Source: an uncultured Pseudomonadales bacterium (GTDB taxonomy: Bacteria; Patescibacteriota; Microgenomatia; UBA1400; PJMF01). From it: a DNA stretch of 64,000 bases. Made by a program: the position numbers and the translations under genes. Under the pieces are notes generated by a model. That model was not told where the DNA came from. It was given only the letters and a program-made list of their open reading frames with translations, and made no database searches. Location of the stretch: positions 23,338 to 87,337 of the forward strand of contig CAZWKL010000002.1 of assembly GCA_964633875.1 (NCBI GenBank), given 5' to 3'. Shown here piece by piece: positions 11,516-29,325 of the stretch. Numbering within the stretch: the first letter of the stretch is position 1; each line of letters opens with the position of its first letter.

Positions 11516-12039
11516 ACCTGGTTTAGCCTGGAACCAGTCGAGTCAATGTTAAGTAGCCATCAGGGAATAATCTCCCACAAAATTTTTGCTGGTGCAACTA
11601 GCAATTTTGTTTTCCAAAGTTAAAGCCTGGTGATGGGTGGAGTGGGCGAGGTTGGTGGAGCCGGCCAATTGCATTTTGAGTGCGCAAAGAAATTCAGCCG
11701 CGGTGACTTTTAGTGATTCTTGCTGCTGCCCGTTGTCACCAAAAATCTGGCTTTGGTAATACTTCGGTTGAAGGTTTTTGCGATCATTGGCTGCGCGGCC
11801 AAAAAATGGAGTTGCTGGCCGATTGGGTAAACAAAGACAAATAAGCTTATAATGAACACATAATGTCAATCGAGTTAAAGGGTATAAATGACCTAAACGC
11901 CTCAGCGCCTGAAAAACAAAATGTACTCAATTTGAGAGAGCAATTTTCGCTATCTGTTCGGTTGAGTTTTGCCCACGGCTTGCCAGTTTCTCCAAGTGAA
12001 GTTATACTAACAACACACGCGCCAGACATGGTTCGCACC

Positions 12040-12262
12040 CATGAATTTGCCGGCTAACTCGCCGTAGCAGAGCGCGGCCGGAGAACAATCCCGGACGGTT
12101 GGGGCCCGTTAAAACCTGAGGCTCACTGAGCCCGCAAGTTTTTCCGCGGTAACGCGGAGAAAGAAAAAGGGTGGTACCGTGTTTCGCTTTATTGGAAAAG
12201 AAGCACCCCTTTGTTGCCGGCGCAAATTTTTGCGCTTGCAGTGAAGGGGTATTTTTGTAGCA
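12040..12262 (+). promoter_or_regulatory. T-box riboswitch leader of argS (Arg specifier, no Stem II)
   Basis: T-box core AGGGTGGTACCGTG at 12168..12181 matches the consensus AGGGUGGNACCGCG. Stem III hairpin ccgcggtaacgcgg lies just upstream. Stem I has a loop ggccggAGAAcaatcccgg, with AGA (Arg) followed by A. A compound terminator hairpin cacccctt...aaggggt plus TTTTT sits at 12204..12256, and its 5' strand can pair with the T-box GGGUG (antiterminator). The following argS starts at 12326. Confidence 0.75.
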
Positions 12263-12325: not shown

Positions 12326-14188
12326 ATGAAATTTATCAACAACAACTCACAAAATCCCATTAAGCAAGAATTGGAAACACTTATTTGGCAGTCGCTCCAA
12401 GCGCTCAAGCTGCCGCAGCCGGAGCAAATTAACCTGGAGCGACCCGCCAATATTGCGCACGGCGATTACGCCACCAGCGTGGCCATGGAGTTGTTTAGCC
12501 AATCACAAACTAGCAATGAAACAGAATCTTACTCAAGTCCGCGCAATCTGGCGGAGGCTATCGCGGCGGCAATAAACCGCCAACTCGACAGCCAAACCAA
12601 CCCGGCCATCGCCAGCGTGACTGTGGCAGGACCAGGATTCATCAACTTTAAATTGTCTGAGGCTTTTATTGCCGCCAAAATAGGCGAGTTGGCTCAAGAC
12701 CCACGCCCAGCCAAGATGACGCCGGAAAGCCAGCAAAAAATCGTGGTTGAGTATTCTTCGCCCAACATCGCTAAACCGTTTGCGGTTGGTCATTTACGCT
12801 CGACCATTATTGGTGACGCGGTGGCTAATTTGTTGGAGGCGGCCGGTCACACTGTTTACCGCGATAACCACTTGGGTGACTGGGGGACACAGTTTGGCAA
12901 GCAGATTTACGCCATCAAGGCTTGGGGAGACGAAGAGCAGATTGACCGGGCAGAGAATCCGCTCAAAGAGCTAGTGAGTTTGTACGTTAAGTTTCACCAG
13001 GAGGCGGAAGCCGATCCGGAGTTGGAGGAGGCGGCGCGCGCTTGGTTTAAAAAGCTGGAGGATGGCGATCCGGAAGCGCGCCGCCTTTGGCAAAAATGCA
13101 TCCACTGGTCTTGGCAGGAGTTTGAAAAAATCTACCGGCTGCTTAACGTCAGTTTCACCGAAAACGATGGCCGCGGTTACGGCGAGTCATTTTTCGAAGA
13201 CAAAATGGACGTGGTCATTGCCGAGCTCAAAGCCAAAAACCTGCTGCAAGCCAGTGAAGGGGCAGAGTTGGTCTTTTTCCCCAACGATGAGCTGCCACCC
13301 CTTATGATTCTCAAAAAAGACGGTTCTACCCTCTACGCCACCCGCGACCTAGCCGCCGACAAATTCCGGCTGGAGCACTACGGCCACGATATCACCGTGA
13401 TTAATGAAACCGGCTCTGAACAAAGTCTGTATTTCCGGCAGATTTTCAAAACTGAAGAGCTGCTTGGCTGGTACCAGCCCGGTCAGCGGGTGCATATTGG
13501 CCACGGTATGATTCGCTTCAAAGAGGGCAAAATGTCTACCCGCAAGGGCAATGTTGTTTGGCTCAAAGACGTTTTGGATGAAGCCTACCGGCGAGTAAAC
13601 GCCATTTCCAGCCAGGAGTTGACGGAGGAAACCAAGTGGAAAATCGCTGTTGGCGCTTTGAAATGGAACGATCTCAAGCGCAGCCCTCATCTCAATCTGG
13701 TTTTTGATTGGGATGAGATTGTCAACGTCAAGGGCAACTCCGGTCCTTATCTGCAGTATACCCACGTGCGTTGCGGCAGCATTTTTGCCAAAGCCGCGGA
13801 AAAATGGCAGACCGATGCTGTTAGTATAGAAAGTTATATTACTAAACAGATTGATATCTTGCTTAACCTTTTGATACAGCAAAAAATCACTTTATCACCG
13901 ACTGAGAAAGAGCTATTACGAAACCTTAGCTCATATTACGAAACCTTAGAGCATAGTATGATTGAGTACAGCCCCCATCACTTGGCTAATTATCTCTACG
14001 AGCTGGCTCGCACCTTTAATACTTTCTACAGTGATCATCACGTTGTCAACGAAGCCGCTGATGCTTTGGCGGATTTGGCTGAAACCACCCCGGCCGCGCA
14101 CTTGCGCTTGCTGCTAACTCTGGCTACGGCGCGGGTGATTGCTGCTGGTTTGGATATTTTGGGGATTGAAACCGTGGACAGGATGTAG
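12326..14188 (+). CDS. argS: Arginyl-tRNA synthetase
   Basis: 620 aa. SSPNIAKPFAVGHLRSTIIGDA (HIGH-like region). Class I catalytic core and a C-terminal DALR-type anticodon-binding region. The GKMSTRKG stretch is consistent with ArgS, which lacks a canonical KMSKS. Confidence 0.93.
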   Translation: MKFINNNSQNPIKQELETLIWQSLQALKLPQPEQINLERPANIAHGDYATSVAMELFSQSQTSNETESYSSPRNLAEAIAAAINRQLDSQTNPAIASVTVAGPGFINFKLSEAFIAAKIGELAQDPRPAKMTPESQQKIVVEYSSPNIAKPFAVGHLRSTIIGDAVANLLEAAGHTVYRDNHLGDWGTQFGKQIYAIKAWGDEEQIDRAENPLKELVSLYVKFHQEAEADPELEEAARAWFKKLEDGDPEARRLWQKCIHWSWQEFEKIYRLLNVSFTENDGRGYGESFFEDKMDVVIAELKAKNLLQASEGAELVFFPNDELPPLMILKKDGSTLYATRDLAADKFRLEHYGHDITVINETGSEQSLYFRQIFKTEELLGWYQPGQRVHIGHGMIRFKEGKMSTRKGNVVWLKDVLDEAYRRVNAISSQELTEETKWKIAVGALKWNDLKRSPHLNLVFDWDEIVNVKGNSGPYLQYTHVRCGSIFAKAAEKWQTDAVSIESYITKQIDILLNLLIQQKITLSPTEKELLRNLSSYYETLEHSMIEYSPHHLANYLYELARTFNTFYSDHHVVNEAADALADLAETTPAAHLRLLLTLATARVIAAGLDILGIETVDRM

Positions 14189-16071: not shown

Positions 16072-16173
16072 TTGTTAGTCATTACCAATAGTTAACAAAC
16101 TCGTAGTGTGTACAGAGAATAAACCGGAAACATTGCAGGAAGTGGAGAATGGGAGGCTCAACTATTATCGCTG

Positions 16174-16245
16174 TGTCCCCACCAGGAATCGAACCTGGAT
16201 TTAGCGCTTAGGAGGCGCCCGTTCTATCCATTGAACTACAGGGAC
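16174..16245 (-). tRNA. tRNA-Arg (anticodon CCU)
   Basis: The reverse complement gtccctgtagttcaatggatagaacgggcgcctcctaagcgctaaatccaggttcgattcctggtggggaca folds as a cloverleaf. The anticodon loop is CUCCUAA. The TPsiC loop is TTCGATT. No encoded CCA. Confidence 0.85.
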
Positions 16246-16711: not shown

Positions 16712-16748
16712 AATATTGAATCAAACCCCTCAAGCTTGCTGTTTTTTG

Positions 16749-16821
16749 TCGGAGATGGCGGACTTGAACCGCCGGCCTCACCGTCCCGAACGGTGCACTC
16801 TACCATCTGAGCTAATCTCCG
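16749..16821 (-). tRNA. tRNA-Pro (anticodon CGG)
   Basis: Reverse complement cggagattagctcagatggtagagtgcaccgttcgggacggtgaggccggcggttcaagtccgccatctccga. Anticodon loop UUCGGGA. Position anchored against the overlapping ORF-track frame. Confidence 0.85.
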
Positions 16822-27570: not shown

Positions 27571-29325
27571 ATGCCCGGAAAAAATAACTTAGAATTGGAA
27601 AAATTGGAAAATTTGCGCCATTCGGCTGCCCATTTGCTAGCCGCCGCCGTATTGGAGTTGCGCCCAGACACCAAACTCACCATTGGCCCTGCCACCGATG
27701 ATGGTTTTTACTACGATTTTGATTTTGCTGAGCCTTTTTCTGAGAGCGAGCTGCCTGCTGTTGAGGCTAAAATGCGTGAGCTGGTCGGTGGCTGGCACGA
27801 TTTTAAGCGGCAAGAAGTTTCTACCGAGGAGGCTTTGGCCCAGTTTGCCGGCAACCCCTACAAGGCAGAGTTGATTGCAGAGTTGGCTGAAGAAGGCCAG
27901 CAAATTTCTTTGTACCGTTCCGGTGATTTTACCGACCTCTGCCGCGGTGGCCACATCGACAACCCCGCCGAGCAGCTTCAGCATTTTGCTTTACTTGCCG
28001 TAGCCGGCGCTTACTGGCGCGGCAGTGAAAAAAATCCCATGCTCACCCGCATTTACGGCACGGCCTTTTTCAGCCAGGAGGAGTTGGCTGCTCACTTGGC
28101 CATGATCGAAGAAGCCAAGAAGCGGGACCACAAAAAACTTGGCAGAGAACTCGATCTATTTACATTTTCCGAAAAAGTTGGTTCGGGTTTGCCTTTATGG
28201 ACGCCTCGAGGCACTTTGCTGCGTGAGATTCTCAACGATTTTGTTTGGGAATTGCGCAGACAAAAAGGCTACGAAAAAGTAGAAATTCCCCATATCACCA
28301 AGAAAGATTTGTACGAAACCAGCGGCCATTGGGACAAGTTTACCAATGAATTGTTTCGCATTACCACCCGCGAAGGACATGAGTTTGCCATGAAACCCAT
28401 GAACTGTCCGCATCACACGCAAATTTTTGACAGAAAAATGCATAGCTACCGCGAAATGCCGCAGCGCTACGCCAACACCACTATGGTTTACCGTGATGAA
28501 CAATCGGGAGAACTGAATGGCCTTGCTCGGGTCCGCTGCATTACTCAAGACGATGCTCATGTTTTTTGTCGCCAATCACAGGTTAAAGAAGAAATGCTGA
28601 AAATTTGGGAGATTGTCGAAAAGTTTTATTCAGCGGTTGGCTTTGAAGTTGAACTCCGCCTCTCACTTTCTGATCCTGAGCAGCCGGAAAAATACCTGGG
28701 CTCAAGAGATTTGTGGGAAAAATCTGAAAATGAACTCAGGGCAATGGTGGCGGAACAAGGAGCTAGCGCAATTGAGCAGTTGGGTGAGGCCGCTTTTTAC
28801 GGACCCAAGCTTGATTTTATGGCTCATGATTCATTGGGTCGCGAGTGGCAAGTTGCCACTATTCAGCTTGATATGAATATGCCCGAAAGCTTTGATCTAA
28901 ATTGTATTAATGAGGACGGAGAAAAAGAGCGGATTGTGATGATCCACGCTGCCATTATGGGTTCAATTGAGCGCTTTCTTTCTATCATTATTGAACACTA
29001 TGCCGGCCGTTTTCCACTTTGGCTCTCTCCGGTGCAGGCAAAAATTCTGCCGGTTTCAGACAAGTTCAATGATTATGGCCAAAAAGTTCTGGCGGCATTG
29101 AAAGAAGCGGATGTGCGGGCGGAACTGGATGACCGCTCTGAACGACTGGGCGCCAAAATTCGCCAGGGAGAAATGGAAAAAGTGCCTTACTTGCTGGTAG
29201 TAGGTGGTCAAGAAGAGGAGGCCGGTACCGTGACCGTGCGCCGGTGCGGTGAAGATCAACAAGAAGCACTCGAACTCAAAGAATTTGTGAGGAAAATAGT
29301 AAACGAAGTTGCAGAACGTCGTTAA
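27571..29325 (+). CDS. thrS: Threonyl-tRNA synthetase lacking the N-terminal TGS domain
   Basis: Start at MPGKNNLEL. Editing-domain motif LRHSAAHLLAAAV (HxxxH). Class II catalytic core. C-terminal anticodon-binding domain. Confidence 0.92.
   Translation: MPGKNNLELEKLENLRHSAAHLLAAAVLELRPDTKLTIGPATDDGFYYDFDFAEPFSESELPAVEAKMRELVGGWHDFKRQEVSTEEALAQFAGNPYKAELIAELAEEGQQISLYRSGDFTDLCRGGHIDNPAEQLQHFALLAVAGAYWRGSEKNPMLTRIYGTAFFSQEELAAHLAMIEEAKKRDHKKLGRELDLFTFSEKVGSGLPLWTPRGTLLREILNDFVWELRRQKGYEKVEIPHITKKDLYETSGHWDKFTNELFRITTREGHEFAMKPMNCPHHTQIFDRKMHSYREMPQRYANTTMVYRDEQSGELNGLARVRCITQDDAHVFCRQSQVKEEMLKIWEIVEKFYSAVGFEVELRLSLSDPEQPEKYLGSRDLWEKSENELRAMVAEQGASAIEQLGEAAFYGPKLDFMAHDSLGREWQVATIQLDMNMPESFDLNCINEDGEKERIVMIHAAIMGSIERFLSIIIEHYAGRFPLWLSPVQAKILPVSDKFNDYGQKVLAALKEADVRAELDDRSERLGAKIRQGEMEKVPYLLVVGGQEEEAGTVTVRRCGEDQQEALELKEFVRKIVNEVAERR

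Follow-up and report, generated by a model that had tools for sequence, protein, structure and literature searches.

A predicted arginine-specific T-box riboswitch with a short Stem I upstream of argS in Patescibacteria

To our knowledge, gene regulation in the candidate phyla radiation (CPR) is almost unknown, and the DNA upstream of one argS gene raises the question of whether a T-box riboswitch operates in this group and, if so, of which kind. The gene is found in a 64,000-nucleotide stretch of DNA (the window), which ArgS searches put among the Patescibacteria/Microgenomates; relatives of the encoded ArgS carry the Pfam domains Arg_tRNA_synt_N, tRNA-synt_1d and DALR_1. The initial annotation, made from the DNA letters alone, had read positions 12040-12262 as an arginine-specific, glycine-type T-box without Stem II in a CPR-like host. 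The host assignment and the presence before argS of an arginine-related T-box of the terminator/antiterminator type are upheld by the data below, which indicate that the leader is a real T-box with a new architecture, predicted to act on transcription, to be specific for arginine and to bind tRNA through a short Stem I. The T-box transcription attenuator begins ∼25 nt further upstream than annotated, spanning ∼12015-12256 (+ strand). Its 5′ half consists, in order, of helix P1, hairpins A, B and C, and Stem IIA/F-box with the IIB pseudoknot, and its 3′ half of a variable hairpin, the AAG motif with Stem III, and the antiterminator/terminator. The features are as follows.

11980-12008, + strand: promoter-like sequence TTGCCA-17-TATACT, sigma-70-like, the −10 hexamer ending 9 nt 5′ of P1
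12018-12022, + strand: P1 5′ strand CGCGC, paired with 12072-12076 (comparative alignment)
12027-12043, + strand: hairpin A (short Stem I), CAUGG-UUCGCAC-CCAUG, with a 5-bp stem and a 7-nt loop
12034-12037, + strand: proposed specifier CGC (Arg) followed by the purine A12037, invariant at loop positions 3-5 in seven leaders
12047-12070, + strand: hairpin B, the variable arm of a three-way junction, with base pairs UUG/CAG
12072-12076, + strand: P1 3′ strand GCGCG (comparative alignment, RNAalifold)
12078-12094, + strand: hairpin C at the Stem II position, CCGG-A-GAACAAU-C-CCGG (RNAalifold, untrimmed alignment)
12095-12118, + strand: Stem IIA (CGG 12096-98/CCG 12106-08), F-box CCGUUA (12106-12111) and IIB (UGGG 12100-03/CCUG 12115-18)
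12120-12132, + strand: variable linker hairpin GGCUC-ACU-GAGCC, differing in length and sequence among relatives
12136-12162, + strand: RAG motif AAG (12136-38) and Stem III (12139-12162) with a GUAA loop, then GAAAAA
12166-12212, + strand: antiterminator, with the T-box (12168-12181), the bulge UGGUACC (12172-12178) and helices A1 and A2
12205-12256, + strand: intrinsic terminator (12205-12250; −29.2 kcal/mol in the full-RNA fold) and U tract (12252-12256)
12326-14188, + strand: argS, the predicted regulated gene, a 620-aa ORF

The 3′ half of the element is canonical and provides a complete discriminator domain. The T-box sequence, AGGGUGGUACCGUG, at 12168-12181 matches the consensus AGGGUGGNACCGCG at 13 of 14 positions, and its DNA version on the + strand, AGGGTGGTACCGTG, which is located 145 nt upstream of the argS ORF, is the sole exact match in the window, where 0.38 matches to the 14-mer are expected by chance even with two mismatches allowed. 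The first 11 bases at its 5′ end, AGGGUGGUACC, are identical in eight of eight related leaders. A lookalike of the T-box core at 29219-29232, which contains two mismatches and is located within an ORF, is at chance level and was rejected. Upstream of the T-box, Stem III, whose core is ccgcggtaacgcgg at 12144-12157, comprises 10 bp capped by a GUAA loop. Comparison of the leaders showed that the AAG motif is invariant, that a GNRA sequence occupies every Stem III loop and that the Stem III helix covaries; a RAG motif and flanking purines by Stem III have been described previously (PMC11297988, PMC7583486).

Folding of the RNA cut at 12212 generated the antiterminator (−10.6 kcal/mol), in which helices A1 (12166-71/12207-12) and A2 (12179-85/12200-06) are separated by the 7-nt bulge UGGUACC. 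Across the leaders A1 is invariant, while A2 covaries between GUG/CAC and GCU/AGC. The terminator hairpin is followed directly at its 3′ side by AUUUUUG. As the antiterminator and the terminator both use 12200-12212, the two folds are mutually exclusive. In eight of eight related leaders the 3′ strand of a weaker antiterminator is overlapped by a terminator that ends in a U tract and has a folding energy between −26 and −33.5 kcal/mol. Thus the T-box core, the preceding Stem III, the UGGU bulge and the overlapping terminator reported by the initial annotation are all in place, and the mutually exclusive folds that it had proposed as a check are obtained.

The covariance search that had also been proposed gave a formally negative result. 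The Rfam T-box model, RF00230, scored a 551-nt slice at 22.0 bits (E=0.008) against a gathering score of 93, and was absent from an Rfam gathering scan of the whole window, which returned tRNAs only. When the relatives were scanned at low threshold one leader (L015) reached 23.1 bits, and the others were not listed by RF00230 even at E<10. The alignment to the model is, nevertheless, correct for Stem III, the T-box and the antiterminator, and matches 12095-12111 to the IIA/F-box positions, while the ∼90-nt Stem I of the model is shrunk to an 8-nt filler. The low score arises because the leader contains nothing that corresponds to the long Stem I and to Stem II, which together make up about half of the model. 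According to the comparative data, the 5′ half is built differently and a T-box is not lacking. Of the features that define T-boxes the leader displays the T-box sequence, an antiterminator with a 7-nt bulge that is exclusive with the terminator, a purine-flanked Stem III, and an F-box with the IIA/B pseudoknot. A Stem II with a GAA/AGUA S-turn was not found, the position being occupied by no more than a hairpin of 4-5 bp whose 7-nt loop is GRAYAAU. The long Stem I, with its K-turn, internal loop for the specifier, AG bulge and distal loop, is also absent, and the leader contains no AGAGA or distal-loop motifs.

DNA was retrieved through exact-protein look-ups for 14 related argS genes, which have the synteny Lactamase_B/argS/peptidase M16 in common; ArgS scans of genomes and metagenomes returned relatives that are mostly distant and lack a T-box. 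Full leaders precede argS in L014, L015, L022, L024 and L027, whose ArgS proteins are 68, 66, 58, 58 and 56% identical to that of the window, respectively. The leader of L026 (57%) is partial as it is cut by the contig end, and in L010 (∼38%) the leader is located upstream of a small ORF and argS. Six related leaders from Patescibacteria metagenomes have the architecture of the window. TTGnnn-17-TAnnnT sites ending 9-12 nt 5′ of P1 are also present in L015, L022, L024, L027, L001 and L030 (the last two are described below). Such a site precedes the first helix at this distance in each of the five lineages in which it could be checked, which implies that the structured RNA begins where the transcript itself begins, near 12015 in the window.

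In the main alignment, which comprises only seven phylogenetically related sequences, the leaders were segmented by hand, each segmentation being confirmed to restore the actual sequence, variable stretches were removed and blocks were chosen by eye. In this block alignment 97.6% of cells are paired and 30 of 37 pairs display double changes; none of 500 shuffles was as good, and slid partners were 35-48% paired. RNAalifold applied to the same alignment found P1, hairpins A and C, IIB and Stem III independently. As the blocks were picked by eye, the pair counts were repeated on untrimmed MAFFT alignments, which still back hairpin A, the base of hairpin B, hairpin C and the IIB pseudoknot. The elements of the leader are conserved and covary in six independent relatives. 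MFE folding of the 5′ half did not reproduce the comparative structure and was given no weight.

The 5′ half is organised around a three-way junction closed by P1. The P1 helix, which is 87% paired in the untrimmed MAFFT register (L014 is off by one column), covaries among only three versions, CGCGC/GCGCG, ACGCC/GGCGU and AGCGU/ACGCU. Hairpin A has 100% of cells paired and four of five pairs compensated in the untrimmed MAFFT alignment, the 5′ strand of its stem being CAUGG, CUUGG, UCUGG, CUUAG, CCUAA or CCAGA. The loop, by contrast, barely varies (UUCGCAC in four of seven leaders, and UUCGCAG, CUCGCAA and GUCGCGA in the others), and always conforms to N-U-CGC-R-N. A conserved partner for this loop was sought by eye inside the leaders and none was seen. 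Hairpin B varies from 17 to 82 nt among the leaders above a CUG/CAG-like base that is 94% paired in the untrimmed MAFFT alignment. For the base of hairpin A, a K-turn or k-junction was considered and rejected: the G of the bulged strand is replaced by A or C in three of six relatives (L014, L024 and L027), the G of the 3′ ‘GA' is paired within hairpin B, and the junction nucleotides do not retain the G-A/A-G pairs of a K-turn.

Between the junction and Stem III lie the structures that occupy the position of Stem II. Hairpin C displays double changes in four of five pairs in the untrimmed alignment, and its loop consensus, G-GAYAA-U (with one extra base) or G-GAAA-U, is GNRA-like. The loop is GGACAAU, GGAUAAU (three leaders) or GGAAAU in five of six relatives and AAGAAAUC in L010; the window deviates in that its loop begins with A rather than the consensus G, closed by an A-C mismatch. 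Hairpin C is sited directly before Stem IIA, where Stem II is expected, and may substitute for the S-turn by docking on the codon-anticodon helix. In the adjacent pseudoknot all four IIB pairs are double-changed in untrimmed MAFFT (GUGA/UCAC, GCAG/CUGC, AAAG/CUUU and GUAA/UUAC), while the window's own IIB, UGGG/CCUG, is weak with two G-U pairs. Stem IIA has an invariant CG/CG core of two pairs, to which one or two further pairs are added; the covariation of IIA seen in the hand-made block alignment was a register artefact that disappeared in the untrimmed alignment. The conserved F-box and the covarying IIA/B pseudoknot, features that typify the Stem II domain, do not accord with the annotation of the leader as a glycine-type element without Stem II.

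The triplet that specifies the tRNA is likely CGC at 12034-12036, presented in a terminal loop as in the actinobacterial ultrashort ileS T-boxes. In seven leaders this Arg codon stands before argS, and it is the commonest Arg codon both in the window's argS (15 of 27) and across 37 ORFs (28%), while AGA, which is used for 22% of Arg residues in the window ORFs, does not occur in argS. The choice of CGC over a second conserved Arg triplet, at 12069-71, is nevertheless one of interpretation. The UGGU sequence in the antiterminator bulge requires a tRNA with discriminator base A73. The only tRNA-Arg of the window (anticodon CCU; 16173-16245, minus strand) ends in A, as the initial annotation had stated, and a tRNA-Arg(CCG) encoded directly upstream of the L010 T-box also ends in A. 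Neither of these tRNAs reads CGC or AGA, and a tRNA-Arg reading CGC was found neither in the window nor in the loci of the relatives, where CCU and CCG were the only isoacceptors seen.

The data are probably best explained by attenuation of argS transcription through a T-box riboswitch that decodes tRNA-Arg by means of the CGC in the loop of hairpin A. The transcript would begin at ∼12015, at helix P1, and its 5′ half would serve as a reduced decoding module, in which the 5-bp hairpin of the three-way junction closed by P1 presents CGC and the following purine (loop UUCGCAC) to the anticodon of tRNA-Arg, the cognate presumably being an ACG/ICG or GCG isoacceptor that reads CGC. The hairpin with the GNRA-like loop and the F-box/IIA-B pseudoknot, which occupy the place of Stem II in other T-boxes, presumably lend support to the codon-anticodon helix. 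If the tRNA is uncharged its 3′ ACCA would pair with the UGGU of the bulge; this pairing, together with Stem III, would stabilise the antiterminator (12166-12212), allowing RNA polymerase to proceed into argS.

The alternative that survives best, although it is considered unlikely, retains the same architecture but places the specifier at the junction triplet AGA 12069-12071, read by tRNA-Arg(UCU), with hairpin A having some other role. The triplet always encodes Arg, being AGA in six of seven leaders and CGA in L024, shares with canonical specifiers a location 3′ in the first domain, and is a codon used for 22% of Arg residues in the window ORFs. Its A and G, however, form pairs within hairpin B, opposite the 5′ strand (CUG/CAG in 94% of cells), and without them hairpin B of the window would be reduced to only 2 bp. 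In L010 the triplet adjoins hairpin C with no P1, and in L024 the register shifts. In addition, the codon is one that argS does not use, its third-position A runs contrary to the preference for C at codon position 3 described in a review for Stem II-assisted decoding, and no account would be given of the CGC loop, which is invariant on a stem that covaries.

A second alternative, that the leader is a decaying or non-functional relic of a T-box, or a constitutive attenuator that does not sense tRNA, draws on the losses observed in relatives. The ArgS of L001 is 94% identical to that of the window and its leader lacks exactly 12046-12239 (194 nt, + strand): it equals the window up to 12045 and again from 12240, the junction being CAUGGUUCGCACCCAUGAA joined to AGUGAAGAGGUAUUUUUG, and thus retains the 5′ strand of P1, hairpin A and, from the terminator, its 3′ half. 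As more distant lineages have the whole element, this represents a deletion in L001 and not an insertion in the window. The leader of L030 retains AGCGUC...CUCGCAA, a decayed stem (three of five pairs) and a U-rich tail, remnants that point to a second, older loss, and no trace of the element is evident in the leaders of L018, L019, L020, L023 and L025. The riboswitch thus appears to be kept in several lineages and to have been lost repeatedly, and its loss in close relatives shows that the element is dispensable. The clean deletion in the closest relative, the vestiges in L030, the absence of the element from five other lineages and the small deviations of the window in hairpin C and IIB all suit a relic. 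Every module is intact in the window, however, compensatory changes keep the helices across lineages whose ArgS proteins are only 58-68% identical to the window's, and a terminator of −29 kcal/mol before an essential gene would be harmful without a mechanism of antitermination. Decay is, therefore, considered quite improbable. The deletion in L001 offers a natural knockout in which argS expression may be compared with and without the riboswitch.

The reading of the initial annotation is less probable still. In this model the element is a glyQS-type T-box without Stem II, in which the hairpin at 12078-12094 is Stem I and its loop presents AGA (12082-84) followed by A to tRNA-Arg(UCU). The hairpin exists, the window's loop does contain AGA-A, and L010 has AAGAAAUC at this position; the function assigned to them is not retained. 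In five of six relatives, although all precede argS, the equivalent of 12082-84 reads GGA, which encodes Gly and not Arg, and the AGA of the window can, therefore, not be the Arg specifier. The hairpin is also located directly 5′ of the conserved F-box and the covarying IIA/B pseudoknot, which is the site of Stem II, the distal part of Stem I to which the elbow of the tRNA binds is missing, and AGA is again a codon that argS never uses. CGC, which is the better candidate, lies upstream of position 12040 and thus outside the segment originally annotated as the element. Least probable of all is that hairpin A is an independent element such as a protein-binding operator: the P1 5′ strand and hairpin A are unchanged in L001, which has no T-box, and the AGCGUC...CUCGCAA of L030 persists, but retention in L001 is expected from the recency of that deletion, the L030 stem is down to three of five pairs as in a relic, a loop CGC is no Arg anticodon and hence no mimic of an anticodon arm, and P1 links the hairpin to the rest of the decoding domain.

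If the T-box interpretation, with CGC in hairpin A as specifier, is accepted, the leader may be the first example to be recognised of a separate class of T-boxes in Patescibacteria (CPR), a proposal that is put forward tentatively. Members of this class would terminate transcription, lack an elbow platform, display the codon in a 7-nt loop on a three-way junction and use a GNRA-like mini-hairpin in place of an S-turn Stem II. According to a review, a long Stem I is generally needed by transcriptional T-boxes, while in a preprint every ultrashort T-box is said to regulate ileS and to do so at the level of translation. The class would break both generalisations: a long Stem I would not be required for co-transcriptional sensing of tRNA, and the ultrashort solution would not be confined to Actinobacteria, to ileS or to translational control. 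It would also offer a natural module for decoding that is very small (∼100 nt long in the window, with ∼75 nt conserved) and extend T-boxes to the candidate phyla radiation. In a survey from 2008 T-boxes were confined to Firmicutes, Actinobacteria, Chloroflexi, Deinococcus-Thermus and a few Proteobacteria. Within the limited scope of the literature searched, no publication linking T-boxes with CPR, Patescibacteria or Saccharibacteria was found, which is not proof of novelty. As the Rfam model misses the class entirely, censuses of T-boxes in the CPR probably undercount them.

A canonical T-box is exemplified by the argS leader of Paenibacillus plantarum (L005), which scores 126.7 bits against RF00230 and has the specifier CGG. 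With canonical T-boxes the window element has in common the 14-mer (13 of 14 positions), the UGGNACC bulge, A1 and A2, an overlapping terminator, the RAG-Stem III unit with 3′ purines, the F-box, the IIA/B pseudoknot, a site before an aminoacyl-tRNA synthetase gene and an Arg-codon specifier. Unlike them, it lacks the AGUA/GAA specifier internal loop, the AG bulge, the elbow platform of the distal loop, a consensus K-turn and a Stem II with a GAA/AGUA S-turn, and its putative specifier is displayed by the terminal loop of a hairpin that belongs to a three-way junction.

The glyQS-type T-boxes share with the window element transcriptional control and a compact leader, but are its opposite in having a long Stem I with an elbow platform and no Stem II or IIA/B. 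In its decoding logic the element resembles the ultrashort (class II) ileS T-boxes of Actinobacteria, those of M. tuberculosis, M. smegmatis and N. farcinica, here compared by their published description, in which the specifier is located in a terminal loop and function depends on Stem II and the IIA/B pseudoknot. The features in common are a short Stem I without a platform, a terminal loop that carries the specifier and then a purine, a codon that ends in C and is located ∼17 nt from the 5′ end (nucleotides 16-18 of the N. farcinica RNA in the numbering of the review; 17-19 in the window, counted from P1), elements at the Stem II position with F-box and IIA/B, and a RAG-Stem III discriminator. 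The two differ in that the ultrashort T-boxes act on translation through a sequestrator of the Shine-Dalgarno sequence, whereas the window element has a terminator, with the argS start ∼75 nt further downstream. They also differ in gene and codon, ileS, tRNA-Ile and AUC as opposed to argS and CGC, and in phylum. Finally, the ∼40-nt Stem II of the ultrashort T-boxes, with its S-turn and K-turn, is replaced in the window by a 17-nt GNRA-like hairpin and the extra hairpin B.

The riboswitch upstream of argS has been lost in L001, the closest relative of the window (ArgS 94% identical). Comparison of L001:2883-2935 with window positions 12046-12239 reveals a clean 194-nt deletion in the riboswitch interior; hairpin A, whose loop holds the proposed CGC specifier, and the 3' half of the terminator are retained. 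The deletion represents a natural knockout of the riboswitch. The argS leader of another T-box-less relative, L030, still contains AGCGUC...CUCGCAA (L030:1351-1420), followed by AAAAGUGUUUUUUUAU, and the stem has decayed; these remnants suggest that the T-box was lost independently a second time.

Upstream of the argS promoter lie three conserved DNA boxes:
11853-11860, TGAACACA
11916-11929, ACAAAATGTACTCA
11956-11961, GTTCGG

The boxes occur at constant spacing in relatives both with and without a T-box, and the box at 11853-11860 is in part an inverted repeat of that at 11916-11929, the two reading GAGTACA and TGTACTC in some relatives. As RNAalifold predicts no RNA structure over the three boxes, they are probably protein-binding sites.

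Two tRNA genes lie 2 kb downstream of argS in the window, a pair of neighbours also found in L001, and neither matches any of the candidate specifiers:
16173-16245, minus strand, tRNA-Arg(CCU)
16748-16821, minus strand, tRNA-Pro(CGG)

The metagenome-assembled genome containing L001 (CAZESB010000001.1) is titled 'uncultured Pseudomonadales', and protein P0008 is named 'Vitreimonas sp.', yet both ArgS sequences are of the Patescibacteria type, and the bins behind them are probably mislabelled or contaminated. A further T-box core-like sequence in the window, AGGCCGGTACCGTG (29219-29232, two mismatches), is a chance-level match inside a long ORF and was rejected.

In the distant relative L010, the surroundings of the T-box comprise:
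L010:467-539, tRNA-Arg(CCG) gene, directly 5' of the T-box
L010:984-1447, small ORF between the T-box and argS
L010:1574-4105, argS, encoding an ArgS extended N-terminally by ∼230 aa

Hairpin B, the variable arm of the three-way junction, spans 60-82 nt in L022 (∼865-932), L024 (∼450-530) and L027 (∼1148-1205), and in all three an internal loop that places 5'-AG across from 3'-YUGAA is conserved; the 24-nt window hairpin lacks this loop. The loop might provide an additional contact with the tRNA.
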